A DNA stretch of 64,000 bases, taken from Schmidtea nova. Its lineage: Eukaryota. The notes beneath the pieces are model-generated. The model searched no databases and had not been told where the DNA came from. It saw only the letters and a list, made by a program, of their open reading frames with translations. Positions 1 to 60,831 of this stretch are shown here, one piece after another (position 1 is the stretch's first letter; every line of letters starts with the position of its first letter). The stretch is taken from assembly GCA_044892505.1 (NCBI GenBank), contig CM097882.1, positions 283,030,001 to 283,094,000 on the forward strand, written 5' to 3'. Made by a program: the position numbers and the translations under genes.

Positions 1-1
1 A

Positions 2-11701: not shown

Positions 11702-12677
11702 TTCAATTCCGCTGTCTGTAGTTATTTTACTTTCGTTTCCTCTTGTTTCTAGTTCACTGTTAGGTTCGTCACTCGAATTTCGGTCGATCTCAGTTTCTTT
11801 TGCTGATTCGTTATCTGATGCTTTACTATCGTTATCGGTATCGTCACTTTCTGTTTCTTGTTCTACTTCGTCTTCTATTTCTTCTATATAATCGTTGTTG
11901 GTTTTGTCGACTTCTATTTCACTTATTGGGTTTCTCTCGGGTTCTGCTTGATTTTCTTTGTTGCTTGAACTGTTGCTTGTTACTGATAATTTATCGTTTT
12001 CGATAATCGACTTTTGTATTATTATCTGCCTTGCTTTACTTCCTTTTGGGCCTTTCTGATTATTATTCTTGGTAGCTTTATTCTTTTCTGCTGGTTTTAT
12101 TATGACACTCTTTTCTCCTTTTCTCAACGGAATTACTTTTGTATACTCAATTTTCCTGTCTTATCGTGTTCCGATTCTTTTCTTCCTTAGTTGATTGGTT
12201 TGGTTTGATTGATTTATCTAAAATACAAATGTCACTTCAACGATACTCTATTGTTATCGTTGCGCTTTTATTCCCTTTTTACGGGACTTCTCATTACTGG
12301 GTTTCTATTATTTTTCCCCATTCCCAGATTCCCCTTTATTTAAGTCTATTTAAATTATCTATATACTAGTCACAATTATCTATTTAGTCATAACAATTAT
12401 CTATCGGTTATTAAAATACATCAATTATTTTTCCCGCGGTCTCCCAATTTATTTGTCGTTCGAACGCTCTAATTCCCTGAGTCATTTGACTCGATTATTA
12501 TTTTATCATCTCTTTATCTTTCTCTCTGCTAGCCTCTAATTATTAATTCTGCCGGTCTTTCCGGTCAGCTCCTATTTCTCAATTCTACTTGCATGCATTA
12601 TTTTAGGTCGCATAATCAGCTTTACTCGCATTTCTCTATTATCGGTGCGCACTATTCTCATTATCGTCGACGATCAC

Positions 12678-13075
12678 AACTCTGGGCCTATATTCCCTCT
12701 GTTGTTATTTCTTATCACTTGCAACCCTGGGCCTATATTCCCTCCGTTGCTACTCAAATGATTGTAACCCTGGGCTTATATTCCCTCCGTTAATATCTTC
12801 CTTTAATTTTAAATAATTGCAACCCTGGGCCTATATTCCCTCCGTTGCTACTCAACAATTGTAACCCTGGGCCTATATTCCCTCCGTTACTATATATCCG
12901 GATATCCCTATTGGCTCCTTTGGCCTCTAATTAATATCAATTATCTCAAATGGCTCTTATGGCCTCAAATTCATATTTCATTATCTCAAATGGCTCTATT
13001 GGCCTTAAATTCATATCTCAATTATCTCAAATGGCTCTATTGGCCTTAAATCATATCTCTCAATAACGCCTAGCT
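12678..13075. repeat. Two short tandem arrays in the 5' leader of element 1
   Basis: About 5 copies of caaccctgggcctatattccctccgtt (12678-12890) and about 4 copies of atctcaaatggctctattggcct (12930-13060). Confidence 0.85.
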
Positions 13076-13103
13076 AGGTCATTCAATATGGCTCTTTGGC
13101 CTC

Positions 13104-13317
13104 AACCCTTTGTTTCAAGGGACAAACCGCTGATAACCCTTTGTTTCAAGGGACAAATTCTAATAACCCTTTGTTTCAAGGGACAAACCGCTGATAACCC
13201 TTTGTTTCAAGGGACAAATTCTAATAACCCTTTGTTTCAAGGGACAAACCGCTGATAACCCTTTGTTTCAAGGGACAAATTCTAATAACCCTTTGTTTCA
13301 AGGGACAAACCGCTGAT
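13104..13317. repeat. Alternating 31/30-bp tandem array (ABABABA) in the leader of element 1
   Basis: Core aaccctttgtttcaagggacaaa followed alternately by ccgctgat or ttctaat; unit starts at 13104, 13135, 13165, 13196, 13226, 13257, 13287. Confidence 0.95.
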
Positions 13318-13794
13318 AACTTTTCCTTAACCGGTTAATCGTAATTCTTAACTTCGCTAGCGACTACAATTTCTCAGCTGAGTTCTCTCAATTTCATGCG
13401 AGCTGATTATGCACCTCTTATTTTTCTCTATAATTCCTCGATTCTTTGTTTTATTACTAATTCTTTCGCTGATCAGTCATAATTCAATTTTTATTATTTT
13501 CTCTGCGCGCATCTTACCTCATCAGGGTTTTCCCTATTTCTCTCCCCAACCAAAATATACAAAAAGATCGCGTTGGTCTACTAATGCGGGATGTGGTGAT
13601 CAATCACATCACAAAAGCTTTCCAACATTTGCGATTGGCCCCTTTCTATATACCCCGAGTGGGTTGATCAACTGGTACCTCCCAATGGGTGCTTAACGGA
13701 CTACTTGACAGTAGCTCAAAAATTAATTAACATTGTTGATTGCTCCCTTGACTTTGTCATTCGATACAATATATTAACACACTCTAAATATTTA

Positions 13795-14256
13795 TTATAA
13801 ATAAACTACAATTTTATCAGCTACAGAGAAATTGCACATGGGGCACTCATCACACTTATTCGCACAGTTTTTACAGAATCGAAAATGTCCACATGGTAAA
13901 AACATTATTTGGATTTCACTGTTTTCGCATATGTAACATTGTTTATATTGTTTTGCTGCCTCGACCCCTTGCGACATCCATCGGTTATATGTTAGGCTTA
14001 ACTGCTGTTCTATATGTCGGCATCTGATATTCAACTCGGCATCCTCTAATCGTGCTTTGTACCATTTATATCGCGTATTTATATCGAGTTTATTTACTTT
14101 CTCTATGATTTTTATTAACTCAGTTGTTTCCTCAGTTTGTGTCGTAGGTTCCTCATATTCGGATGCTCTTATTCGGGTTATTTTTTCGCAGACTGTCTCA
14201 AATGTTTCGTTCTCGGTGTTGAAAAATTCCTCGATTTCTTTCAGTTTTTCCTCCAT
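13795..14256 (-). CDS. IAP/MDM2-type C-terminal RING-HC protein (153 aa, no BIR domain) between PBS and gag
   Basis: CYICENSEIQIMFLPCGHFRFCKNCANKCDECPMCNFSVADKIVVYL-stop: C3HC4 spacing with the short hydrophobic tail typical of IAP RINGs; coiled-coil-like N-terminus. Confidence 0.85.
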   Translation of the reverse strand: MEEKLKEIEEFFNTENETFETVCEKITRIRASEYEEPTTQTEETTELIKIIEKVNKLDINTRYKWYKARLEDAELNIRCRHIEQQLSLTYNRWMSQGVEAAKQYKQCYICENSEIQIMFLPCGHFRFCKNCANKCDECPMCNFSVADKIVVYL

Positions 14257-14562
14257 TTCCTAGATAATTTATTTAATTACTGTGTTAATATTATTCGAAA
14301 AGTAGTACTGTGTTTCGTTTCTGACAGTTTTATAGCCTCCCCCCGTGTTTCGGTAAAATGTCGTCCCGACCTGTTATTTATGAATGCATTTGTTTAATTT
14401 ATCTACTAATTTGTTTTAATTCTCTGTTTGTAATTATCTATTTCCACGCAACTCACTCTTATCTCGATTACTCTTTCGGTTACTATTTCTACTCACAAAA
14501 TTCTGATTTTAAATTTCTCTGTTGTCATTGGGTTCACATTTTCCGCATAAAAACAAAGTTGA

Positions 14563-14580
14563 ATCCCGGCTGAGCCCCCA
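14563..14580 (-). promoter_or_regulatory. Primer-binding site, tRNA-Pro-like (element 1)
   Basis: Minus strand TGGGGGCTCAGCCGGGAT matches the canonical tRNA-Pro PBS TGGGGGCTCGTCCGGGAT at 16/18. Confidence 0.8.
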
Positions 14581-15114
14581 AATTTATGCTGGGATTATGG
14601 GTGGGTTTTAAGTAATTCAAATAAACAATTAATCATACTAGGGATTCCGCGCCCATAACCATACATAACATGACTACTACACGCGTATGCCCTTGACTAT
14701 TCCCTACTAGTCAAGTTGGTACTGCATACGGTGGTGGAAAAATGATGGGCAGGTGAGCTTTGTCGCCAAAACTACTCCCCATTTATCTTCCCTCGGGTTC
14801 TTGCTGCCGATAGAAGGTCTTACGCATTTACATTCTATGGATGTTCGTTTCTTACTGCATTTTATACTACATATACTTATGATCTATCACACGCTTTTCC
14901 CAATGACGCTCTCCCTCGCTGTTCTACAAGCCGACGAAAACTCTCGCTGCTAAGCAACGGTCGGTGTAGGTTTTACGATGCGATTTTCAGTTCTACGAAT
15001 TACTTATGTAGTCTTATTTTATTTAGTGAAATCACAAGATGAGAGAAAAAATTTACCCAGTAATACTTTTATTGAAATAATAAAGACAGGTTGTTATTTT
15101 ACATTGAGGTTTTC

Positions 15115-15699
15115 CTATTCAAACTCCAGGCTAATCTCCTGGATTAACTCTGCTTCGGTTAAGGAATTCAGGTGGTGGATTTGTTCGTCCAGGCGCTTTG
15201 CAAATTCTCGGCGACGACGGCGCTGTCGCGATCCCATTCGATGTTTTCGAAGCTGTTGGTTTATGACCGGTGCTGACGCTATTATTCTCGGGGGATCACT
15301 GAGAAAAATGGGCAAATCTTCCGTTGTAAGAGTGGGTGCCATGATGATATCATCTTCTGTCCCGCAAGCGACATCTTGGTGAGTGCATGGTATCCAGCGC
15401 TGAGCCGTGATCGGCCGGATTAGCGCTCGCAATTCGGAGTCGATGTAACTTCTTGTTACTGCGTTCAGGCAATTTCGGAGTTCTCGCTGGACGGCATCCA
15501 GTTCCAATTTGGTTGTAGCCAATGCTTCCTGCACTCGCTCGAGTTTTTTCGACTGGTCCTTCATCTGTTCGGGCGAGAACCACTTCGCTTTCAATTCATC
15601 ATTGGCGACCGTGAGTCGCTTGATCTGTCGCTGCTGGTCCCTCAGCTTTCTCTCTTGAATTTGTCCCATGATTTTCTTCGAATTTTCTGAAGCCGGCAT
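15115..15699 (-). CDS. Unknown 194-aa coiled-coil protein with Arg-rich motif, inside the candidate LTR
   Basis: ATG-started ORF, GC-richer than its flanks, heptad-like N-half, RQRRRRR motif, and AATAAA on the minus strand at about 15068-15073. Confidence 0.55.
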   Translation of the reverse strand: MPASENSKKIMGQIQERKLRDQQRQIKRLTVANDELKAKWFSPEQMKDQSKKLERVQEALATTKLELDAVQRELRNCLNAVTRSYIDSELRALIRPITAQRWIPCTHQDVACGTEDDIIMAPTLTTEDLPIFLSDPPRIIASAPVINQQLRKHRMGSRQRRRRREFAKRLDEQIHHLNSLTEAELIQEISLEFE

Positions 15700-16015
15700 G
15701 TTGTCTGAAGATTATAACGATAAATCCACTGGAGGGCCTATCAATAATGTTATTTTATTTAAACAACTATTATTATTATTACACGAGATGTATATTAATG
15801 TTTTTAATTGTTGAGTTCTCTACAAAATTATTTAACTATCTAATCATTGAAGACTCAAAAGGTTTATTGAACTAATTTTATATTAATAAATGAATTTCCT
15901 AATGACTATAACAACTACAATACTAAATCTACATGACAACACTATTAACAAAACGAACATTTCAGAATTCTTTAAAACATTTATTTAATTTAAAAACAGG
16001 CGGCCATTGGTTCAG

Positions 16016-16492
16016 CTATTCATCCTCGGTCATTTTTCCTCGATACGAAAATACCGAGCGGATCTGCAAATTTGTATGGATTCCTGTGCTATTGGACGAG
16101 GCCTGCTGGAAACGGATTCTCTCAGCTTCTCGGAGGGGTCGGATGGCTGTATTGAACTTGAACCCCAATTCCTTGAAGGTAGAGGCTGGAATGAACCCCC
16201 AATAAATGACACATCTCGGGAATCCACCTTTGTCCAACATCATGATGAACCAGGCGGCGTGCCATGATTCGTATTCCTCGTCTGGAATGATTGGCCAACT
16301 AGCGCATCCCCGGTACCATACGTGATGCCGTGGATGGTCCCATACTGTAAATGGACAGGCGGTTTCGAGCTCTCGGCGCCATGCCCACATCTTTTGGTGA
16401 ATTTGCTGTAAAATCTCGAAAGGAGCCGGCTTTAATGGGCTAACTCGGGCTCGTTCTTGTCGTTTTTTGATAGTGTATCTATGCTTAGCCAT
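16016..16492 (-). CDS. Unknown 158-aa Trp/His-rich protein, inside the candidate LTR
   Basis: ATG-started ORF, GC-richer than its flanks, same strand as the element; no family recognised. Confidence 0.5.
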   Translation of the reverse strand: MAKHRYTIKKRQERARVSPLKPAPFEILQQIHQKMWAWRRELETACPFTVWDHPRHHVWYRGCASWPIIPDEEYESWHAAWFIMMLDKGGFPRCVIYWGFIPASTFKELGFKFNTAIRPLREAERIRFQQASSNSTGIHTNLQIRSVFSYRGKMTEDE

Positions 16493-18105
16493 GATTCCAA
16501 AATGATGCTGAATTTTATAATAGTTACAATTTACATCAATAATTAATCATAGTAAATGTTATCTCTCATCGTGATTCCCTTATTATTTGCCTTCCCCTTA
16601 GACCTTAGCTGAAATCAAGAAAAAACTGTTGTTTGTTACAGTATACATTACTCTCGTATCTACTTAGATTTATCTGTTTACGATCAAGTTGATAGACGAA
16701 AAATTGATGATTTGTCTGCTTGGATTTTCAAAATATTGGTACCTCAAAACGGAAACTCTCTCCCGTCATGTATCCCTAGTTTATTCGAAAAAACGCTCTT
16801 TTGTACCAAACGCGGTCGACATAATTTTCCTAAGGTTTATTAGACGTTTATTAAACAGCGGCGCTGTGGTGAGGGTGAAAAATTGTGCCTCCTCCCGGTT
16901 AACAACTTCTTTCATATCTTTAAGCTTTATCAAAAAATTCTCGTCCCCTCTGTAACTAAAATGATCAGAAAATAATTTCCCGGATTTGTTGGGTGTCCCA
17001 TGTGCAAGTCTCAACCACTACTAATAAAATTGTGCTTTACTATTTATTACTTTACCGTGTGTGGAGCCCTCGAGCACCACGCCACGGACGGACACCTTGG
17101 GAACCTAAAGCTCCCAACGGCGCAAAATTAATATGATCATTATATATTTTAATGTTGAGTCTAATCACAATAACGTTTAATTCATATAACAAATTTCAAC
17201 ACATGAATGCATAAACACATAAATAATTAGATCAATAGATAAATGACAAAGCAAATGACACAATCATGAATAAAATAATACAGAAACCAAAATACCTAAT
17301 TCGTCTGGGTTTGCTTCGATCGGTTCGTCTAGAATTCAAAGTCTATTTGATTAGTGAGCTAAATTTTACACTCTCAACTGACGTTGTAAGATTAGGTATT
17401 AAGTCTGTTTTATCCAAAGTCTGATCAGTATTTATACTGATCAGTCTGATCTAGACTGACCAATCGGATTTGGCCGATTTCATGGTGGGTTTTAATTATT
17501 GTTTTTGATTCTAATTAATTTTTATTTTTTAGATTGTATTCTTCCTTGGAGGTCCGGGTTTCAAAAACAATTATTCAATAACAAGTACTTTTATTTGGTT
17601 TTAATTATTATTATTTGTATTTTATTTGTTTTTAGATGTCTCCTGGGCCCGTTAATATCTATAAATTCATTTATTTTTATTTATAGCTTGTACTTAGTTA
17701 TTCTATATTTTTACTATATTATTCCTTTCTTTTAATAAATAAATATTCCCCTTTTTACCTTATTTTTCTCTTTTTTGTTTTAATTAATCTACTTTTATTT
17801 CATTTTTTTCTCTATTTGGCTGGCCCAACACAAATATCTTGATAAAATGTTAAATAACCTCAATATTAAATTACATTCATTGATTAAAACAAAAAAAAAC
17901 AGATTGATAAATAATAGGATTACAGACATATGGAGATAAGTTATAAGAAAATTAATATAATTAATACGGTATACATGTCAACCTGATATAGATCATTACA
18001 TTTTTAAACTCAAGGATGCCGGAAAACGGGATGACACTAAATATAGTAATTGTTATTTTGAACTGTTAAAAGTAGAAACTTTGATTAAAAACAAATATAA
18101 TTTAC

Positions 18106-45277: not shown

Positions 45278-46071
45278 TGTTGGGTATTTTGTTGAAAGTC
45301 GGTTCTAATTTCTGACTCCTGGTGTTCTTTTAACAAATAATTAACCCAACACAATAACCTTTATTTCAATATCACACTTTATCACAATGATTGAACAATA
45401 TAAGAACTGTCTTTTCACACTGAACTTAACTGCTTTCAAGTCACTTGCTGCAAGGGATAAGTCTCCCAACGGAAGATCTCCCTTTCTGGTGCGCAAACAA
45501 ATGAATTAAATTTTACTCTACAACACTACCTTTTCGGACTCTTCTTCTAATTTTAATCTGTTCATTTTGAAATCTTATCTCTTCGACCACTGGCCCCACA
45601 TTGCAATTTGCTTCTCCTTTTATAGTGCTTCCTCCTTAATGCTTGATTGTTCTGTCTCCCAATTTTGACATTTTAATCTACGACTCAAATTAAACTGTCA
45701 TATTGTAATTTAGTAGCTCTCGCCGTTTCCACATCCTTAGAGCAAATTGAACTGTCACTTCGCTTGAGCGGGTTTCTCTCCTCTCTCGGGCTCTCCATTG
45801 GCTCGGGTTTCCCATTGTCTCGGGCTTTCCCTTAGCCAATTAATTCTTAATTAATATTTTAAATTTTTAATTGTTTCTTTCTGGGGACCCCCCATCGATT
45901 TTATTTTTATTTATTTGAATTCGTCTCATAATTTGGCACACACCCATACCAATTTCCCCCATGATATATTAATTTTAAATTTTATTAATTTTTTAATTAA
46001 TGTTTTAATATTTGGTGATTTTTGCAATTTTATTACTTTTAAATTTTGAGTCACTTTGACAAACCCCAACA
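45278..46071 (-). repeat. 3' LTR of element 2 (794 bp)
   Basis: TGTTGGG...CCCAACA termini; identical to 60038-60831 except at 45769 and 45922. Confidence 0.98.
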
Positions 46072-47729: not shown

Positions 47730-49134
47730 TTAATTGAATTTTAACTCAAAACTTTCTTCACCATGGCAATATTGGACAATTGTTCCTTTTCGCACATACG
47801 TCTTCCCTGCATATGTTATCGAATTTTCTATTTGCAAATTTGAACCCACTTTTCTTTTCCTAGTTTCTTTGGCTGTTGAACCCTTTATAAGTGTTGACTT
47901 TGCTCTTCCACTAATTGAGCTTGTAAATATTGCCAAACTTTCTTCGATGGGCTCTAGACTAGTTTCCTCTGCAAAATTCAATTGTATTTCAATTTCCATT
48001 ATTGATGGTTCTTCTATTGTCAGATCCACTGTTGTTGTCATTTCCGATGTGCTCTGTGTTGCTCGTAAATTTCTGTATTCCTCCAGTGAATATATTTTTG
48101 AGGGCTGTTTCCTGGGAATCATCACATCATCGATCCATTGACTCTCCACTTTCAAATAAACTTTTCTAATGCTTTTCACATCTTCCAACGCAGTGTGGAT
48201 GCTTGTTTGTGTTTTTCCCGCATAATTCTTCAGTGATTGTTTTTAACTTAAACCATTCTCCTTTTCGGCTTACCTTCATTGATTTTAACACTTGCGCTGC
48301 TGCTAAATCTCGAATGCCATATACTTTATTGATCCAAATTCCAAGATTATTCAATTCCGCTTGGAGATCATGACCAATCAGTATTTTCCCTATGGTCAAC
48401 CTCTGAATATCTTTCATCTCCTGATATTGATCTGCCTGATTTCTACTGGCCACTTCCGTTATTCCGTGGATTTTGGAATTAAAATGTCTTATTTTCCCTC
48501 TTGGTGTAATGTATGTATTTTTTATAATTTTTCCATAATAATTTAGGATTGCGATTGACAACGGAATCATTTTTCCGCTTTCGGAGCTTCCATATTCCGC
48601 ATCGATAAACAAAATTCGATTACGGATTTCTTCTATATCCATCTCCTTTCTAACAAATGAGAGCTTCCTTTTTAACATTTCATCTGAAATTGCCATCAAA
48701 TTCTCATCATTAGCTTCTGTCGGATGTGTACTTGGAATTTCTCCAGCTTCATTTTCAATTCTGGTTTCGATAACCATTATGGCATCCTCGTTTGCGGCTC
48801 GCAGCAAATTGAACATTATTTCCCTCTGCAGTTTCCACGTAGTAAATTTTTCCAATTCCTTCCGAATCTGATTCCTTTCGTTCAACATTTCTACCGTGCC
48901 TTTTATTATGTGGAGGTAATATTGTTCTTTTCTTGCTAACTGCATTTCCTCTAATAACTTCATTTTGTTGTTTCTGTGCACTTTTAGAATTTGTATTTTC
49001 ATTCTTCTGTCATCACTTCGAAGGTAGTTGGGAATTTGCAGATTGTTGTTGATCTGGAATTTTTGTCCGGCATGGCTTCTGCTGAGTCTGGCGTAACTGT
49101 CGTATACCGATCTTGGCCATTGTAATTGTTCCAT
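47730..49134 (-). pseudogene. REX4/ISG20-like DEDDh 3'-5' exonuclease, frameshifted near 48190-48215
   Basis: ILFIDAEYG (ExoI), KIHGIT, ILIGHDLQAEL (ExoII), IRDLA, FKLKTITEEL, then in the adjacent frame IHTALEDVKSIRKVY (ExoIII HxxxxD). Confidence 0.85.
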
Positions 49135-49551
49135 TTGCTAAAATTATTGAATTTTTAATTTACTTTAATTTTAGAATTTGAAACTATGATCGAGGTTGGG
49201 CACCCAAAGGATATCGTCTCAATCAATAGTTGTATAAATAAAAATATTTAATTAATTACCTATTTATTTGAATTTGAAAAATTCGGAATCTCAGAAATTT
49301 TGAAATTCAAAATTTTGAGTTTTTGAAATTTTAAATCTAACGGTTTAACACGTATCCTATATACCCTCTTAAATTTCCTTCCCCTTTTTAATTTCTTCTT
49401 TTTATCCAATCAAATTCATTTGCCAAGCGATCCTTGAAAGCAGTTTTACATCAAAAATAAAAAGTGTTTCATAAAATGTAATGCTATCAATAAATAAATA
49501 ATAAATTCGACACTACTGTTACTCATATTGCATGCAGAAATCATTATCTTA

Positions 49552-50720
49552 CTACACAAATGTCTCATCGTAGACAAACCAAGGTCTCGAAGGTTCGGAT
49601 TGATTTGCCGGAGATTGAAATGATTTTTCGAATATGCACAATACGATAGCAATGATAACTGTTAGAATTACTGCTAAAGAAATGATGATTATAATCAATG
49701 TTATGCACATTTTTTCATTATTCATTTTTTGGAACAATTTAGTTTGATTTTTTACAATTGATTTTTTGATAGGAATGTTATTAAGAAATGTTGTGGTTTG
49801 ATATTGGTGTGAATCGTTTGGGTATGCTTCATCATATGAGACTTGAATGAGTTTATTTTCGACAAACGTTATCTGCCATAGATTTGAATATAGAGTACGA
49901 CGATAATATTTGATTTTTACGAGAACTAATTTCGACATTGGGTTTGCTTGCGATTGTTGAAAAATTATTGTTTGAGATTGTCTTTTGCTGTCTAGAATTG
50001 CTTGCATTTTCCCATAACAATATATAACCGCCTTTTGATTCGGGTCTGTTTGCCTGGTGACTTTTATTGCTTGATGGTAGATGTGAAATTGAACTCTTCG
50101 TTTCATTAATTAATGTTATCGTTTGTTGACTGGTGTGAACTTTAACCCATTGATTCTCTGTATTGGTGCCATTTTCATATAAAGTCTTCTCATAATAGTG
50201 AATCACAACATTATAAGTCTGAAATAACTTTAACTTAATATAATTTATGAAGGGTTTTCTACTATTCAATGTGTCTATTGCATAATTTTGGAAAATCGTT
50301 TTTACTTGTTGGGATTCTTGGGGTTCCCAATATACATTAATACTATTTATCGAAGGTTCAATTGATACCAAATTGTTCCGATTTTTTGTCCAAATTTCTA
50401 GGCGTATTATATTACGTATTTCCGTAGTATTCTTTTTAGGATCTAGCTGTGCTACCAGCCAGGGATATTTGTAATTCATTGTCAGATGACGTGCAACATG
50501 ATAATTATTATTATAATTCAATTTCACCGGGGGTTCAAAATAATTTAATAAATTATTTATTTCTACTTCCTCATCTTTTTCACAGGAATAAATCCACACA
50601 ATCTGAGTACATGTTGCAAATGTATTGATTCTCTCTAACAATGGGATTCGTTTTGTTGCAACCGTTGGAAGAAATCGTACTGCATTCGCACACAAAACAT
50701 TCAACATCATTACTGTAGAA
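49552..50720 (-). pseudogene. Second type-I membrane glycoprotein downstream of integrase (frameshifted)
   Basis: Signal-like KILLISTVMMLNVLCANA in ORF 49853-50977, a beta-rich ectodomain with NxS/T sites, and TM MCITLIIIIISLAVILTVIIAIVLCIF plus a short tail in ORF 49552-50106. Confidence 0.6.
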
Positions 50721-50967
50721 ATTAATAAAATTTTATTAATGTAGCTTGATGGGGCTGGATTTCTATTATACCTCTGTTTGATTGCTTCATCTTCCTTCCG
50801 TTTTGATCGTAATGGGTATTGTTTTAACTCTTCCACCGGCACCTTTTTACAGCGGTTTACATGAACAACTATTGTTCCAGCTTTTTTATTATTCTGTGGA
50901 CGCAACTTTAGATTAGTCTCTGTAGCATCACATACTACATATGGTCCTTTAAAAGGTCTTTGCAGTT

Positions 50968-53640
50968 TCACTGACAATCCTTTAGTCGGCTCTGGTTTAT
51001 TTCATACACTAAATCTCCAATTTTAATATCATGCGCATGTGCGCGTTTATCATAGCACTCTTTATAAGCTTCTTGATGGTGTTTTATTTTAAGACCTGCT
51101 TGACCCCATACTGACTGCAATCTCTCTTGCATAATTACTTTATAATCGGATACGTCCATATATTGGGAAATCGGTGGCGGAAATTTCAAATCAATTGGCA
51201 TATTATTACGTCGTAAATACATAAGGTAGAAAGGTGTTTCACCGGTACTTTCATTAACTGCATTCCGATATGCAAATAGGCATGGTTTAATATACAAATC
51301 CCAATCTTTTTGCTTTCTATTTACATAAGAAGATATCATATTTATTAGTGTTCCATTGAATCTTTCCACTAAACCGTCTGTTTGTGGATGATAAGGTGAT
51401 GTACTTATTTTCATTATTCCGAATAACTCCGTGACTGATTTGAATAAATCACTTTGAAAATTTGTTCTTTGATCTGTAAGTAATTTTTTTGGTGCTCCAT
51501 ATCGGAATATTATGTTTTCAACAAATATTTTTGCTACTGTCTCTGCTTTTTGATTTGGCATAGGATAAGCTTCTGGCCATTTTGTTAAATAGTCACAAAA
51601 GACAATAATGTATTTATTTCCATTTGTCGTTTCTGGTAGTGGACCCACGATATCCATTGCCGTCATTTCCATCGGCGCTTGTGGTACTGGCATTGGCTTT
51701 AAAGGAACTTTAATTTTCTTTCCTGTATTTCTCCTGGTTAGACATATTTCACACGTATGACACCACTGTTTGACCTCTTGCTCCATCGTGTCCCAATAAT
51801 ATTTTTGCTTTAATCTCGATAATGTTTTACGTGCTGATAAATGTCCTCCCAATGCTCCATCATGATACAACAACAGTAATGATCTTCGATGTTTTGTTGG
51901 AACGATAATTAATAAATTTTCATTTTTCACACATTTTAGCAAACCGTCATGGACAACATATTTATGTTTTTCCTCAACAACATGTTTCCAGTCACTCTCT
52001 TTTTTGATGGTGACAGCATGTTGACGTAGCCGATTTAATTCAATATCACTTTCTTGATCATTTTGTAATTCTTTTAGATTATTTACAGTTTTAATTGCCA
52101 TAAATATTGTATTTTCATAATTTATTTCATTTCTACCATCCACATTTTCGTCATTAATTCTCGATAACGCATCGGCATTGGCATTTGACCTTCCTGTACG
52201 GTACTTTATATCGAAATCATATTCTTGCAGCGCAATTGACCATCTGATTAATTTGCTGGCTGAATCTCTGTGCCTCATGAGCCATTGCAGTGGATTATGG
52301 TCTGTAAAAACAATAAACTTTCTACCGATTAGGTATTGTCTGAAAGTAGTTATTCCATATACCAACGCTAAAGTCTCTTTTTCGATTGTAGAATAATTCT
52401 TTTCATGTGGCTTTAATGTTCGACTAGCATAAGCAATTACATGATTTTTTTCACCTTCCACTTGTTGACCCAACACTGCTCCTAATGCGAAATTACTGGC
52501 ATCTGTCATTAATATGAACTGTCTCTTAAAGTCTGGACATCTCAAAATCGGTTGTTTTAATAAACTTTCTTTCAGAATATCAAATGCATTTTGTTGAGCC
52601 GTCATCCATTTAAATTTAGTTTGCTTTTTAAGTAGTATATTCAAAGGTTGTGCTACATGCGAAAACTTTTTAATAAATTTTCTATAATAACCTGCTAAAC
52701 CAAGAAATTGTCGAACTTGATCAACATCTTTTGGAATTGGATAATTTTTGATTTTCTCTACATTTTCGGGATTTGGCTGTAATCCACGTCTTGAAATAAT
52801 ATGACCCACATAAACAACTTCATACTTTCCCCATTCGCATTTTGATGGTTTTATTTTTAGATTTGCTTTTAATAATCTTTTGAATACTGTTTCAACATCT
52901 TTTAAATGCTCTTGAAAACTGCCTGAAAATATTATTATGTCATCAATATAGACTAATGCATGTGGAATGTCTCGCAATACGAAATTCATGCCTCTCTGAA
53001 AAGTAGCAGGTGCTCCAGTTAATCCAAATGGTAAAACGTTAAACTCGTATAGGTCTTTACCATCTGAAAATGCAGTTTTTCTCTTGTCATCCTCTTTTAC
53101 TTTAAATTGGTTGTATCCTTTATTTAAATCAATTACTGTGAAAAATTGTACCTCGCCCATTTGATCAAACATTTCCTGTGGAACTGGAATAGGATATGTA
53201 TCTTTTCTCGTGACCTGATTCAACTTTCGATAATCTACACAAAATCGCAAATCTCCATCTTTCTTTTTAACAACCACTATCGATGATGACAATGGTGATG
53301 AACTGTCTCGTATAATATTGAATTCCTTCATTGCTTTAATTTGTCGATCACTTTCTTCTTGATAAACGTAAGGAATTCTATATGGTCTCAATTTGATAGG
53401 AGTTTCATCCAGCAAAGGTATCTCATGCTCAATTATTTGAGTAAGTCCCAAATCGTATTCATGTTTAGCAAACACACTTTTGTATTTCATCAATAGTGCT
53501 GTAAATTCTTGCTTTTGCTCAGCTGTTAAATCATTGCTTGTAACTTGAGGTTGCTTATAAATTTTGATATTTCTCGGTAGCTTTTGAGCTTCTTCAGCTT
53601 CGATTTTTGTCAGTTTCCCCACTTTTGTTTTGGGTTGCAT
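50968..53640 (-). CDS. RT-RNase H-integrase portion of Pol (element 2)
   Basis: FCVDYRKLN, LPFGLTGAPATFQR, YIDD, TDASNFALGAVL, TDHNPL, YHDGALGGH..CEIC, MDIVGPLP, PYHPQTDGLVERFN. Confidence 0.97.
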   Translation of the reverse strand: MQPKTKVGKLTKIEAEEAQKLPRNIKIYKQPQVTSNDLTAEQKQEFTALLMKYKSVFAKHEYDLGLTQIIEHEIPLLDETPIKLRPYRIPYVYQEESDRQIKAMKEFNIIRDSSSPLSSSIVVVKKKDGDLRFCVDYRKLNQVTRKDTYPIPVPQEMFDQMGEVQFFTVIDLNKGYNQFKVKEDDKRKTAFSDGKDLYEFNVLPFGLTGAPATFQRGMNFVLRDIPHALVYIDDIIIFSGSFQEHLKDVETVFKRLLKANLKIKPSKCEWGKYEVVYVGHIISRRGLQPNPENVEKIKNYPIPKDVDQVRQFLGLAGYYRKFIKKFSHVAQPLNILLKKQTKFKWMTAQQNAFDILKESLLKQPILRCPDFKRQFILMTDASNFALGAVLGQQVEGEKNHVIAYASRTLKPHEKNYSTIEKETLALVYGITTFRQYLIGRKFIVFTDHNPLQWLMRHRDSASKLIRWSIALQEYDFDIKYRTGRSNANADALSRINDENVDGRNEINYENTIFMAIKTVNNLKELQNDQESDIELNRLRQHAVTIKKESDWKHVVEEKHKYVVHDGLLKCVKNENLLIIVPTKHRRSLLLLYHDGALGGHLSARKTLSRLKQKYYWDTMEQEVKQWCHTCEICLTRRNTGKKIKVPLKPMPVPQAPMEMTAMDIVGPLPETTNGNKYIIVFCDYLTKWPEAYPMPNQKAETVAKIFVENIIFRYGAPKKLLTDQRTNFQSDLFKSVTELFGIMKISTSPYHPQTDGLVERFNGTLINMISSYVNRKQKDWDLYIKPCLFAYRNAVNESTGETPFYLMYLRRNNMPIDLKFPPPISQYMDVSDYKVIMQERLQSVWGQAGLKIKHHQEAYKECYDKRAHAHDIKIGDLVYEINQSRLKDCQ

Positions 53641-54696
53641 CTAAATAGTTTTTGTGCCACAATTCGCTATTCGCACTGGCACTAATTTATTTTTGACTCT
53701 CACTATCTCATCACACATAGGTAAATCATATTTTTCTATTAATTTTAGATTTGGTTCGAATATGCATTCTTCACCTGGTGCATTCGTTACATCTGCATAA
53801 TATATTATTTCGCTTTTTGATGGTATATCAACTAATTGATTTATGAAAACTTCTCCTACCTCCTCAATAACCTCACCAGTTTGACCTTTTATTATTTTCC
53901 CGGTATTTAAATCAAGTGAAATTCCTTTTAACTGTTCCATAACGTCCATACCGATAAGGCATTTTACGGGGCTTCTTCTCATTACTGTTACCCAGTGAAT
54001 AATCTCCTGATCTCCAATCTTCAATTTTGCGTTAACTTTTCCTATAATATTCAGCAGATTATGCGACATTGATTTGATACGCTTATTTGTCGGCCTCATC
54101 TCTTTTCTTTCTCGACTCGTTAATAATTCCTCTGACACTATCGTATGACTTGAACCTGAATCTAGTAAAGCTTGCACTCTTCGACAATTAAACAAAACAT
54201 CGATCCGAGGTTGTTTTCCTTCCACCTTCATTGTCATTAATGCATAACTGCACGGTAATCCAAGCATATTTTTGCGTTCGATTTCCGCACTTGTTGGTTC
54301 AATTTTCTCTGATGTAATTCGAATCTCATCATCTAATGGTTTCATCTCTTTTAATTTTTCGTTTGGATATACAGGTGCTGTTGGTACAAATGTTGGAGTA
54401 TACCATCGTGTTAACGTATCAATTCCGCCTAATTTTGGCATTGGTTCGAGCAAGAACCTAGTTTCTGGTTCTGTTTTATTTTTCAATATCCCTCTTCGCA
54501 AATATTTCAACTCGGTATTACCTCCGTCATTGTTATTGTTCTGACTATTGATCTCTTCCGATTGACATAATGATTCCTCACTTTTTTGATCCTTTCTCAA
54601 TTGTGCTCTTACATTTGCCATTTCTTTGTATTGATGATTTGTAATGAAAAATCTGGCCAAAAATGGATACAACCGATTATTATTTTCCATGACCAT
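53641..54696 (-). CDS. Env cytoplasmic tail/linker plus aspartic protease (element 2)
   Basis: VQALLDSGSSHTIV...CLIGMD; same frame as the RT ORF, separated from it by a single TAG. Confidence 0.92.
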   Translation of the reverse strand: MVMENNNRLYPFLARFFITNHQYKEMANVRAQLRKDQKSEESLCQSEEINSQNNNNDGGNTELKYLRRGILKNKTEPETRFLLEPMPKLGGIDTLTRWYTPTFVPTAPVYPNEKLKEMKPLDDEIRITSEKIEPTSAEIERKNMLGLPCSYALMTMKVEGKQPRIDVLFNCRRVQALLDSGSSHTIVSEELLTSRERKEMRPTNKRIKSMSHNLLNIIGKVNAKLKIGDQEIIHWVTVMRRSPVKCLIGMDVMEQLKGISLDLNTGKIIKGQTGEVIEEVGEVFINQLVDIPSKSEIIYYADVTNAPGEECIFEPNLKLIEKYDLPMCDEIVRVKNKLVPVRIANCGTKTI

Positions 54697-57600
54697 CCGG
54701 AAATAGCGTATATTCTATGTGCTGACAACACTTGCGATACTATCACTTTCATTGTTACTGCAATTACGTAGATTCCAATTAAACCGGCACAAGCTTGCCC
54801 TAAGAACATAAATTTACCCCAAATCTTTTCCATTGTTTTATATGTGGCTCTTTTGAAATGATCGGGTGTTAACAAATATTCGTAGTTAACTTTTCCTTCT
54901 CCATTTGGTAATATTGTATCAACCATTTCTGAAATTACCCTTTCCTTTTTTGATGGAAATAGCAAGTTTCTTTGAGCCTCTTCGATGTCTTCACTCGCAT
55001 ACAACCCCATTTGTGCCATTTTATTCAATGACGTAAAATTTACCAAATATTCTAAATTTGTTAGCTCTAATTTATCAGGAGTTTTAACTCCTCGGTAGTC
55101 TGGTAACGCTACCCATGAATCCGGCGTTAAGCGATATAACGGAGCAAGTAATCAATTACATTGTAATATTTTTGGTTTAGCCTGTACTTCGAGCAATATT
55201 CGAGTGATTGGTTCCATAAATCGTAACTTGCCACCAACACTTACGGGTAATTCATTCGTACATTGTTCATATTTCGCAATCTTTACAGCAACTTCCTTAC
55301 ATTTGAAGCTGTACAAAGCTTCTCCAAAAATTCTCGTGAAGACCCCACTTTCCGATATCAACATAGGTGCTACCAAATTTGGGTTTGTGACTGCCATAGC
55401 CATCCGATTTCGAAGAATCTCTTTATTTAATTTACAGTCATTTAGGATCATTTCTCTATATACATTCTCCATGACGTTCTGACTAAAATGGAATAAATAA
55501 TCAATTTTATTATTAAAATAGTGCGTTAATTTAATGTCGCCTGTATAAACTCTCGTTTTTGCGTCTTCAACTATTCCCTTTGATACATAGACACCTTTAT
55601 AATTTGTTGCATACACCACTCTTCCACATTTATTAGTAGGTTCCTTTTTTATGAAACGCATGCGGTCCGTTGGCGATGTTGACATCAACACTGCACTTGT
55701 TTGTCTGGTCATTATCGGAATCGATTTAATTGACTCTTTTGGTTTATAATTCAGAGCAAAACTATCAGGTCTTTCTTTGAATTGTTCTCCGATTATTTCT
55801 TTAAAATTCATTGTCTTTAAATGAGCCAAATTACATTTATTTACTTTAACATCATAAACTAAAATTGATTCTCCCGTTTGACAATTTGTCTGTTTCATAT
55901 TGCAAAATGGATGTGTTTGCAATTTACCTGTATCATCATCAAATGCTCCTTCGAACTCTCTCAATTCTGTAAGGTACTCTTCAAGTACTACCGTTTTATC
56001 CACAATTTTACCATCCATTTTATACGGTTCACCTTCGCAATCACCATTTGCTTTCATGGTTCCTTTCACAACTACTGTCTCTCTCGTTCTATGATTCAGT
56101 TTGGCTTTTAATCGAATTTCCGAACTTATTTTTAATTCTCCGGTTTGAAATGCTGTTAAACCATTTTCTGGAAAAATTTCAACGGGTCTAGGTATTGCTC
56201 TCACTTTTATCAATGACGTGTGACTCCATTTTCCACAATAAAACACAAATGTTGTATGTTTGACAATACACTCTCTAACTTTAGTTCGTCGTAAATCTGA
56301 CTCTTGATACACATGGTATTTTACATCATTTTCGATTTGTAATTTACTCGGATAGGCATCTGGGCATTCTGACATATCTACCACTGAGTAAATCTTTCCA
56401 ATTTCGGTTTGGGAGCAATCATATGCAACCAATGACGTCGCTTGTGCAATAACTGTACACAAGATAATCATTGTAAACATCAACCATGGGAATATTCCGA
56501 TTCTCTTTGTTTTCGAACTGACTTTATCACATAATTCTCTTGTCTTTTCCTCATTTTCTTTTATATCTAGTGGTGGACACAATATCTTCCAGCCACCCTT
56601 TTCTTTTACCCAATTTATTAAATATTCATTAAGCATCCTGGCTGCCGTATCTATTAAATCATCCAACTCTTTCGACTTTACAAACGCATACGTTCCTATC
56701 TCTAAAATCGCATACGTCAAACTCGTCAATACTACCTCCCTATTCACTTCCTTTTGGATCAACTCTTCAAAAACCTTTCTCTCACAGAAATTATTTCCTC
56801 TACCAAATCGTTGTACTACTTCAGGAAGCCTATTTTTCAATTCTTTGACTATCTCTTCCACATCTTCCTCCACTTGTAATTCTATCTTAAACATTGGATA
56901 TATCGTTTTAAGCAGATGCTTTAATATCTGTTTTGTTTCATCTACTTCTTTTTCAACTCTTACCAAATTTCTCTTTATTTCATACAAAGTTCTAGGTTTC
57001 CCATTTTTATTGCTAACTTCATTAAGCACATCTGATTTTTGTCTTTCCGCTTCCTGTACCTGATCTCTCACTATTGGATTCTTCTGAAAACTGCCATCTA
57101 TAATAGTCTCATTTTCTTCAGTTTCTTCGATTTCCTCTTCCCCTTCGTCTGATTCTGAATTATCTAATTCTTCCATTCTTCCTACTTGTACTTCCTTCAC
57201 CGCTACTATTCGATTTATTACATATCCATTACTTCCCTCCATACTTAAATATCCCTCTTCATTTACTTCTAACGGTAAACACCCGCAATCATATAGATAC
57301 TCGTCATCATCTAGCAGTTCCCCTTTATACCTCAACGTTATGATTCCATCCGTTCCTAACATTTTCGAAGCTCTTCTACGTACCCTTTTTACCTTTGTGC
57401 ACCAATGCTCTTCAGTATATTCCGTCTTTCCACGCTCTTCATAATCTATTGCTATAACTAAATGATTCTGCTCGACTCTGTCTTTTCTAAGCTCTTTACC
57501 CATTTTCCTCAATAAGCTTTTAAGCTTTTTACTGTATCTAGTTCTCCCAAATAAATATGGTCGTATTAAATTCGCGATTTCTACTTTATCTTTAGATTCA

Positions 57601-58520
57601 AGCTCACATTCCTCGATCATTTTTAATTTGTCATTTATTTCATTTTCATCTCCACTATATAATGCATCATTTAACTCTTTTGTAATTTCAACTGGATCTC
57701 TTTTAATTATCACACAATCTTTTTGTAACGTAATTATTTGCAACTCGTTTTCATTACCTGGAATAAACCCACAATCTATTAAATATTCGTTATCTTCTAA
57801 TTTTCGATTTTTAAATCTCAACTCTCTCATTAATCCATCTCGTTTGTCTGTTAATTTATTTTTTAAATCTCTCACACAATCATTGGCGTCACAACGTATA
57901 CAATTTACACTTTTATCACTCTCATCAACAACATCAATAAAAATAAAATCTAACCATTCCTTTTCTCGAAACATTTTCCCAAATATTTTCATCATATCTT
58001 TTATTTCGTCTCTATCCTTTGAATTCACTTCACAATAACTCGCACATACATTAATTACACTTTTTAATTTCCTCATATTCAATGACATTTGACTCAATTC
58101 TTTTAGCGAACTCATTATTTTGGATGAATCTTCTCTTCTCGCTTCTATTAATTTTTCAATTCTTGTTATAATCATTGTCGATAATTCAATTCCTAGATCA
58201 TCTTTCACATCTTTTCTCCTCGATTCTTCTTCCGTCTTTTCTTGTGGATCATACATCATATGGTTATCCATTTCCTCGTCGGATTCAAATTTAGACATTA
58301 GCCGATCCAAACGTCGACCTATTTCTTTAACTTCGCTTTGGATTCTTTCTTTGAAATCATCGGGCTGAACAAATGCTACATTGTCATTCAGAGATTTATC
58401 ATTTTGAAATCGGATTGTCTTCTTTAGTATTGGTCTTTGGAACTTGTCGTTATTTCTGGGACATGATCTGGCGATATGTCCATACCCTCTACATGAGTGG
58501 CATTGAATTTGACCTTGCAA
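54609..58520 (-). pseudogene. CCHC - Ubl x2 - Bcl-2-like - signal peptide - gB/chuvirus-like Env - TM (element 2), with an in-frame TGA at 55152
   Basis: ORFs 55152-58520 and 54609-55046 share a frame. Ubl at about 57730-57955 and 57260-57465; BH1/BH2 at about 56580-56790; signal IGIFPWLMFTMIILCTVIAQA; env motifs co-linear with element 1; TM FMFLGQACAGLIGIYVIAVTM. Confidence 0.85.
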
Positions 58521-58586
58521 ATTAACCTTGTCTCTTTGTGGTGACGGTGATGTTGACGGAGATCTTGATTTAGCATAACAATTTCT

Positions 58587-59632
58587 CTACACATGTCCTT
58601 TCTTTCCGCAATTGTAGCAGTGCAGAGTATCATTGTTTCGTTGTTCCACATTGCTAAATTTATTAAAACTTTTATCACCATTACCTTTCATCCACTCTGG
58701 CCACATTCGCCTTGGGCTCTGCGTACTACCTTTGAACCAACATTGACTACTATTATGACCCATCTTTTGGCAATTATTACATTGGATTGGAGTTGGGCTT
58801 CTTTGGGATCTGTTTTTGAGCCAACATTGATTCACATGATGTCCCATTCTTTGACAATGGCTGCATTGTATTGGCATTTCTTTCTCCTCCATTGGAGCAT
58901 TAGTTGTTTGACTTGATTGGAATTTGGCTTTGAATTTTGGCGAAGGACTGCTATATTGTTGAAATCTGTTGTTCTTCTCAGGAGTTACTGATCGTTCTTG
59001 TTTTTGTTCCATCATTGCAAACGATTCTGAATTTGATTGTGTACTTTTCAAATTAAGCTCAATTTTCATGGCCTTTTGATTAATTCATCGAAGTTGTTGA
59101 AATCGACATAGCATAAAGCCTTTTTGATTTCCTTTTTAACTCCCGATAAAAATTGATCTTGCAACAGTTCCCTTACTTGCTTTGCCACTTCTGGTTGATC
59201 GGGTTTGGTTTCGAAAGCTTTTTCTGCAAGAGTCGTTAGATGATAAGCAAATTCACTTACAGATTCATCAGATTTTTGCATTCGATTGTAAAATTTTTGG
59301 CGCATAATCCTTTTGATATCTCCTCCGATCAATTTAGCGGCTAATGAATCTTTAAGTCTCATCCAGTCATTTCCGATTGTCCTTTTGTCAATTTGTTGCC
59401 ATACTTCTCTGGCTGCTCCCTTTAAATACAAGGGCAATCTTTGTATCATCGTGGCTTGGCTCCATCCATACGCATTGGCATACATATAATAGTCTGCCAT
59501 GAAATCGACAAATTCAACTGGATCTCCTCCATATTGGTTAACTGGTAGCTTTTGACAACTAGCGAGATCATTGCCATTTCCTGCATGACTTGTCGACATC
59601 GGCGCTTCATCATTACTATTTGAATTGCTCAT
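58587..59632 (-). pseudogene. Gag of element 2 (frameshift near 59066; TAG inside the third zinc knuckle)
   Basis: YGGDPVEFVDF..RLPLYLKGAAREVW, then CSHCQRMGHHVNQC, CNNCQKMGHNSSQC, CYNCGKKGHV*RNC. Confidence 0.9.
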
Positions 59633-60016
59633 ATTATTCTGATATTTCGTTTGGCTTCTTAATTGACAAAATGGTCGAGTTGGTAACGTTTTCTCTCGTC
59701 TAAATTTTAAAATATCAATTATTAAATTTACCCTTTATTAGTCTTTATTTTCTCAAACTTCAATTTTCACTTTTTCACGATTCAACTTTTATTCACACAA
59801 AAATTTCCAATTTATTTCTAAGAATTTACTTTTCAATATAATTAATTTATTTTCACAATTCTTTTTCAACTTTTTCAATATTTTCAATTTATTTTCAATG
59901 CTTTCAGTTTCAAATTTCTCTCAATATCTACTCTATTCACTAACGATATCACCGCTTTTCACACGTTTTATTGTAATTTATTCAATTAATTCTCCACCAA
60001 TTCTTCACCGACTTTG

Positions 60017-60037: not shown

Positions 60038-60831
60038 TGTTGGGTATTTTGTTGAAAGTCGGTTCTAATTTCTGACTCCTGGTGTTCTTTTAACAAATAA
60101 TTAACCCAACACAATAACCTTTATTTCAATATCACACTTTATCACAATGATTGAACAATATAAGAACTGTCTTTTCACACTGAACTTAACTGCTTTCAAG
60201 TCACTTGCTGCAAGGGATAAGTCTCCCAACGGAAGATCTCCCTTTCTGGTGCGCAAACAAATGAATTAAATTTTACTCTACAACACTACCTTTTCGGACT
60301 CTTCTTCTAATTTTAATCTGTTCATTTTGAAATCTTATCTCTTCGACCACTGGCCCCACATTGCAATTTGCTTCTCCTTTTATAGTGCTTCCTCCTTAAT
60401 GCTTGATTGTTCTGTCTCCCAATTTTGACATTTTAATCTACGACTCAAATTAAACTGTCATATTGTAATTTAGTAGCTCTCGCCGTTTCCACATCCTTAG
60501 AGCAAATTGAACTGTCACTTCGCTTGAGTGGGTTTCTCTCCTCTCTCGGGCTCTCCATTGGCTCGGGTTTCCCATTGTCTCGGGCTTTCCCTTAGCCAAT
60601 TAATTCTTAATTAATATTTTAAATTTTTAATTGTTTCTTTCTGGGGACCCCCCATCGATTTTATTTTTATTTATTTGAATTTGTCTCATAATTTGGCACA
60701 CACCCATACCAATTTCCCCCATGATATATTAATTTTAAATTTTATTAATTTTTTAATTAATGTTTTAATATTTGGTGATTTTTGCAATTTTATTACTTTT
60801 AAATTTTGAGTCACTTTGACAAACCCCAACA
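60038..60831 (-). repeat. 5' LTR of element 2 (794 bp)
   Basis: Direct repeat of 45278-46071, adjacent to the PBS. Confidence 0.98.

Follow-up and report, generated by a model that had tools for sequence, protein, structure and literature searches.

An exonuclease gene between pol and the 3′ LTR

Why would an LTR retroelement carry an exonuclease of its own, and is the reading frame that suggests one really a gene of the element? The window (the whole 64,000-nucleotide stretch of DNA analysed) raises this question on its reverse strand. There, the frame 49137..48166 (−) has an ATG at 49134 and contains IDAE and GHDLQAE, while the overlapping frame 48242..47730 (−) contains HTALED. Based on open reading frames and genomic copies, the 5′ part of an accessory gene was assigned to 48166..49134 (−), encoding a jelly-roll domain, a linker, Exo I (DAE) and Exo II (GHDLQAE). 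The 3′ part lies in the other frame (47730..48242, −) and encodes Exo III (HTALED), a variable acidic tail, an RKRK basic cluster and three C-terminal strands. The 5′ part leaves the homologous frame near 48210, and this single frame switch falls within the frame overlap. The first-pass annotation had placed one frameshift at 48190-48215, after repair of which all three Exo motifs would be recoverable, and had described a gene with its own ATG, inside the LTR pair and between pol and the 3′ LTR. All of this agrees with what we found, with LTRs at 45278-46071 and 60038-60831 and reverse transcriptase (RT), RNase H and integrase upstream. The accessory exonuclease ORF is a genuine gene of the retroelement.

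A Burro-like element smaller than the Burro giants

The LTRs are 794 bp long, 99.7% identical and have TG..CA ends. The 5′ LTR (60038..60831, −) is followed by a putative primer-binding-site-like stretch starting with TGG (approximately 60034-60017), a polypurine tract precedes the 3′ LTR (45278..46071, −), and the target-site duplication is ATAT (4 bp). A Burro-like polyprotein gene (49552..59734, −), assigned from open reading frames, Pfam and other copies, encodes gag, zinc knuckles, a fusion glycoprotein of the Monjiviricetes type, protease, RT, RNase H, integrase and a post-integrase extension. Pfam also gave weak ubiquitin-like and Bcl-2 matches in the polyprotein, both below cut-off. 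The env domain (PF24664, E 2e-52) shares a frame with gag and protease and sits between the two, downstream of the SUMO-like and BCL2-like motifs, which is the Burro-like order. This gag-to-pol domain order is a hallmark of planarian Burro elements (PMC6431247), and a flatworm is therefore the probable host. Like the Burro/GYPSM1 giants of planarians, the element has gag, zinc knuckles, SUMO-like and BCL2-like motifs, a mononegavirus-type env, protease and pol in one frame, in addition to an accessory ORF (PMC6431247). However, with 15,554 bp from LTR to LTR it falls short of the giant size of Burro-like elements (over 25 kb). At 15.5 kb and with 0.8-kb LTRs it is roughly half as large as Burro/GYPSM1, ankyrin, TRAF and dUTPase matches are absent, and it has the exonuclease gene, which the Burro section of PMC6431247 does not list. 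Its RNase H-integrase region is 48% identical to that of a 28-kb neighbour in the window and 54% identical to that of the Burro-like metagenome contig L132.

In the window copy the polyprotein is interrupted in several places, whereas other copies have a single frame of 3,393-3,402 codons. Since about seven polyprotein breaks coexist with LTR differences at just 2 of 794 sites, the window copy appears to have moved in trans from an already damaged parent. The post-integrase extension (49552-51001, −; approximately 480 aa) is in frame with pol in other copies and gave no convincing Pfam match. Its C-terminal hydrophobic segment is present in four lineages, and the extension may anchor the polyprotein in the membrane.

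The neighbour, element 1 (window 1-17830, plus L075 and L124), is Burro-like and 28.3 kb long, has two identical LTRs of 3.2 kb and encodes an open polyprotein with env and ankyrins; TRAF/MATH and bZIP-like ORFs are located downstream. No exonuclease homologue was found over its entire length. Upstream of its gag, a 154-aa ORF (window 13795-14259, −) has a C-terminal cysteine-rich RING-like motif, which we take to resemble IAP-type RINGs. Another ORF (L092:368-5780, −), with SUMO-like, protease and ankyrin matches, no RT and a TRAF gene next to it, is possibly a non-autonomous Burro derivative.

The exonuclease is conserved across genomic copies

A genome search with the exonuclease gene yielded at least 150 scored matches. 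An intact ORF is present in the family: among the matches listed, 45 of the 61 closest copies have an uninterrupted frame of 460-480 codons. The genome harbours at least eight sequence lineages of the exonuclease, with identities down to 37%. Pol is located directly upstream in nine of the ten element loci whose flanks were examined. Furthermore, the exonuclease was found within 6 kb of 54 of the 58 close integrase matches; the other four comprise one broken form, two internal deletions and one interrupted copy, and counting the broken form the gene is kept in 55. The catalytic residues, on whose conservation among copies the first-pass annotation depended, are likewise maintained. All Exo motifs were found in 71 of 77 loci, with all five catalytic positions in one open frame in 68, and the catalytic five are retained in eight genomic lineages whose synonymous sites are mostly saturated.

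The exonuclease gene is under purifying selection. For the nuclease domain, dN/dS was 0.07-0.26 in the eight of 28 element pairs with unsaturated dS; in the remaining 20 pairs silent sites were saturated, at protein identities of 51-75%. In addition, a second insertion with different flanks has the same exonuclease break as the window copy and does not share its polyprotein breaks, showing that a genome without a working exonuclease was still copied.

Two other origins of the frame were considered. A chance ORF or neutral passenger is ruled out by selection (dN/dS), and a host gene that the element happens to enclose is ruled out by the multi-copy state of the gene and its position behind pol.

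In one copy (L030/L085), an internal deletion joins integrase in frame to the exonuclease, giving an open frame of 2,633 codons.

The nuclease has an ISG20-like predicted fold and a DEEDh motif

Natural unbroken copies match ISG20 by sequence, profile and fold, and the match is therefore not due to chance. An unbroken copy matched ISG20 with an E value of 1.1e-5 by sequence, and profile searches gave 3e-13 to ISG20L2 and 5e-11 to ISG20. Pfam found no PF00929 match for the two window halves or for the closest unbroken copy, L003; the score was 23.2 bits for L031 and L044 (curated cut-off 24) and above cut-off for the L053 lineage and L132. In the L003 model (98-row alignment), residues 1-343 form one folded unit (pLDDT 96.7, pTM 0.90). 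The predicted nuclease has an RNase T-like fold and aligned with ISG20 over 159 residues (Z 18.7, 2.0 Å rmsd; Foldseek E 5e-10), followed by Pan2 (Z 15.4), SDN1 (14.2), nsp14 (9.6) and RNase D (9.3). The tail varies, is modelled poorly and contains an RKRK-type cluster in six of eight lineages.

Exo I (D-x-E) and Exo III (H-x4-D) are present, and at Exo II a Glu is aligned to the Asp of ISG20. As this acid is Glu in 73 of the 74 readable genomic copies (Lys in one, Asp in none) while other family members keep Asp, the motif is a DEEDh variant. The model thus indicates an ISG20/REX4-clan 3′-5′ exonuclease fold with a DEEDh motif. Of the DEDDh exonuclease of REX4/ISG20 type proposed initially, the clan stands and the Asp at Exo II does not. 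That reading had also overlooked the N-terminal jelly-roll, a splice-acceptor-like site, the dead paralogues and the precedent of exonuclease ORF3s in rotifers (PMC5408684).

The ISG20/ISG20L2/REX4/SDN1/Pan2 clan (PDB 1wlj, 7yw5, 5z9x) provides the best sequence and fold matches and shares the layout D-x-E, GH, H-x4-D. In contrast to this clan, the element-borne protein has the Exo II Glu and a fused N-terminal jelly-roll, at approximately 20% identity. Viral ExoNs (coronavirus nsp14, arenavirus NP) are virus-borne nucleases of the DEDD superfamily and offer an analogy in immune evasion, and nsp14 has the same DEEDh spelling (PMC7654266, PMC7968707). However, the element nuclease is distant from nsp14 in fold and lies outside a replicase or nucleoprotein. 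No zinc-finger cysteine pattern was found among its conserved columns. The DEEDh enzyme nsp14 is active, although some DEDD enzymes, such as Klenow, can be crippled by as conservative a change as D/E (PMC7654266).

A jelly-roll domain without the dioxygenase triad

The N-terminal domain (48754..49134, −; approximately 127 aa) was assigned from folds of L003, fold searches and conservation as a double-stranded β-helix of the cupin/AlkB fold. Residues 1-127 are predicted to form this helix and to pack rigidly on the nuclease. The domain has the fold of AlkB/2-oxoglutarate dioxygenases, with AlkB and cupin matches tied: ALKBH6 (Z 9.6, 3.4 Å, 127 aligned), ALKBH1 (9.5) and a small cupin (9.4). The AlkB-type dioxygenase motif consists of an HxD/E..H iron triad plus a 2-oxoglutarate Arg. 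Neither was found in the domain, where His 75 and Glu 123 are the sole conserved His and Glu. Residues conserved across the family are Y11, P35-N36, H75 and E123.

Relatives with and without the catalytic set form a two-domain family

Word-indexed protein searches returned 1, 0 and 1 relatives, whereas 2,005 proteins at E ≤0.001 came from a full HMM scan; the family is described here from the best 150 of these. Searches of viral contigs gave no relative, and none of 22 clusters examined had an informative name. Genomic context comes from the genome itself and from one element on two metagenome contigs, and we infer that the remaining relatives are element-borne as well. The N-terminal domain is covered by 54 rows, counting those from the genome itself and leaving out one that looked cellular. 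Of these, 23 are DEEDh, six DEDDh and five partial, and 20 do not have the catalytic set. Those 20 retain R212, D235, R275, W334 and the N-domain residues. The N-domain motifs could also be recognized by eye in additional DEDDh members.

A quick unrooted tree of 54 chosen rows split 36 two-domain from 18 cellular ISG20L2/REX4-like rows (SH-aLRT 100), the cellular label being verified for one row; a larger 144-row quick tree was also built. The two-domain proteins did not group inside the cellular REX4/ISG20L2 set, their nearest cellular sequences are ISG20L2/ISG20-like, and the DEDDh members sit nearest the split. On L132, a dead gene (L132:5611-7086) and a canonical DEDDh gene (7386-8717) lie in tandem behind pol. 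A weakly ubiquitin-like ORF follows this tandem, and the polyprotein of the contig has an aspartyl-protease match, with ankyrin repeats after integrase.

A putative splice acceptor precedes the start codon

A TTTYAG stretch resembling a splice acceptor (49138..49143, −) lies 3 nt before the ATG and is proposed from the nucleotide sequence. Such sites were found 2-9 nt before the ATG in five of six lineages, a raw count in AT-rich DNA. A pattern search of the genome gave no spliced retro-copies versus 61 unspliced matches. No spliced read was present in a poly(A) run labelled as another organism; 81 of its 12 million reads matched, on both strands and mostly less than 95% alike.

Precedents in other retroelements

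Exonuclease ORF3s of the DEDDy, RNase D-like type are known from bdelloid rotifers, in the LTR elements Juno and Vesta and in Terminons (PMC5408684). These are likewise separate, lineage-specific exonuclease ORFs behind pol that show a DEDD to DEED change (PMC5408684), which suggests that this change recurs in mobile-element nucleases. In contrast to the rotifer ORF3s (PMC5408684), the enzyme studied here has the Exo III His rather than Tyr and is far closer to ISG20 (Z 18.7) than to RNase D (Z 9.3). It is also joined to a jelly-roll domain, occurs alongside env and has paralogues that are dead. We infer an independent capture, the rotifer enzymes being compared by description only. A full-text literature search, with Grohme 2018, Jurka 2007, Repbase and supplements outside its scope, returned no description of an ISG20-clan enzyme with a jelly-roll in Burro-like elements, and the accessible text of PMC13524379 mentions neither exonuclease, DEDD, planaria nor Burro. 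Relative to the rotifer DEDDy ORF3s, the ISG20-clan type with a fused jelly-roll in Burro-like elements is new. It suggests that a mobile element has taken over an enzyme from a cellular RNase clan noted for acting against viruses.

Possible functions of the exonuclease

The explanation that we tentatively prefer, although we would not call it probable, is that the enzyme serves counter-defence as an RNase that acts in trans and is produced from a spliced message. The exonuclease would be translated from a spliced subgenomic mRNA via the acceptor just before the ATG and, having its own mRNA, would be a free protein outside the polyprotein. The Exo II Glu would still support two-metal catalysis, as in coronavirus nsp14, and the basic tail would take the protein to the nucleus. 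The jelly-roll, lacking the dioxygenase triad, could be a reader of substrate or partner that is fixed against the nuclease. The enzyme could attack host guide RNAs or the precursors of these at their single-stranded 3′ ends, or else by-products of the element that set off silencing or sensing. The dead paralogues may act as decoys or partners, still binding but no longer cutting.

A counter-defence role fits best because the nuclease appears to be free, optional, likely nuclear and of ssRNA type, has many dead paralogues and belongs to a lineage rich in host-directed domains. The first-pass annotation had put forward three roles, RNAi/piRNA evasion, RNA trimming during reverse transcription and fidelity support, and evasion is the most fitting of them. 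The gene is not needed in cis, as the break in the second insertion indicates, two deletion derivatives lack it, and it is optional in the wider Burro-like group, given the 28.3-kb relative without it. The lineage also has other likely host-directed domains, namely Bcl-2-like, TRAF/MATH and ankyrin (also PMC6431247). Burro1 is controlled by nuclear PIWI (PMC8532177), SDN1 trims AGO1-bound microRNAs (PMC6123492) and arenavirus ExoN suppresses innate signalling (PMC7968707). ISG20, on the other hand, prefers single strands and degrades ssRNA and ssDNA (PMC9157404), which argues against an arenavirus-like role on dsRNA. Several points count against counter-defence or leave it less specific. Selection was strong and purifying rather than diversifying, with no sign of an arms race in dN/dS. 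Mature piRNA 3′ ends are 2′-O-methylated and may resist the enzyme. Moreover, trans-complementation is common to all retroelement proteins, and the shared break is therefore no specific sign of action on the host.

Instead of acting on the host, the enzyme might help replication by trimming element RNA, the tRNA primer or cDNA at the 3′ end, either while reverse transcription is under way or ahead of integration, a possible but unlikely role. The same function has been proposed for the rotifer ORF3s (PMC5408684), and ISG20 acts on both ssRNA and ssDNA (PMC9157404). The strong purifying selection, the retention of the gene in 55 of 58 close copies and the copy with pol joined in frame to the exonuclease are in line with a helper role. 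However, that fusion was seen once and is the product of an internal deletion. The gene normally lies outside the polyprotein and therefore has no evident route into the particle, the 28-kb relative with identical LTRs has no homologue, and the many dead paralogues are difficult to reconcile with a helper. These paralogues, and the separation of the exonuclease from RT, also speak against proofreading in support of a long RNA genome, as performed by nsp14 in coronaviruses. Proofreading would suit the shared DEEDh spelling (PMC7654266) and a length of 15.5 kb, which is long for a Ty3/gypsy element, and fidelity support had been suggested in the first-pass annotation. It is disfavoured here: a 28.3-kb Burro-like neighbour in the same window manages without a homologue, the fold is far closer to ISG20 (Z 18.7) than to nsp14 (Z 9.6), and we regard this role as very improbable.

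The enzyme could also reprogramme the host in the manner of REX4/ISG20L2, acting within the nucleus or nucleolus on pre-rRNA, snRNA or mRNA ends and shifting translation or cell state in favour of the element. The ISG20L2/ISG20-like nearest cellular sequences, the basic cluster in the tail and the pre-rRNA processing by ISG20L2 (PMC10899777) point in this direction. Yet the long branch from the cellular group and the fused new domain suggest a changed substrate, and we consider such reprogramming unlikely. Finally, binding rather than cutting might be essential. The DEEDh form would then have little activity and, in the same way as the dead paralogues, would be a suppressor that binds RNA or protein. 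The 20 of 54 two-domain rows that keep R212, D235, R275, W334 and the N-domain residues without the catalytic set would agree with this. Such a role is nevertheless improbable in view of the retention of all five catalytic positions over eight lineages with mostly saturated synonymous sites.

Little is settled about the means by which animal retroelements withstand piRNA and RNA sensing, and the exonuclease gene is a small, well-folded and assayable candidate with many young copies. Natural versions predicted to be active or dead allow comparison, and knock-down is routine in the host animal group.

A dead homologue in the host genome

An open 601-codon homologue, P0002 (L105:6409-8211, −; G000:C1, approximately 264.55 Mb), has the jelly-roll and a nuclease without catalytic residues. 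It is single-copy as protein and as DNA, its surroundings are decayed repeats, and no pol was found within 20 kb upstream. Downstream, within approximately 15 kb, there is a fragment of DNA polymerase B as well as an endonuclease VII ORF. As neither the word-indexed protein search nor the 144-row quick tree revealed an orthologue, P0002 is a candidate only for domestication, as a decoy. A more specific form of the counter-defence model, which we hold to be doubtful, is that the jelly-roll and ISG20-fold nucleases of Burro-like elements destroy PIWI/Argonaute small RNAs, with the jelly-roll reading the modified RNA end, active and dead copies acting as pairs and the host keeping the dead P0002 as a decoy. 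If true, this would give an animal retroelement an enzyme as a weapon against piRNAs and its host a domesticated counter-measure. The genome also contains an uninterrupted host-type DEDDh gene, P0003 (L113:4669-5853, −; PF00929 E 1e-25), which is the sole strong PF00929 match among the matches listed in the genome search and presumably resembles ERI-1.
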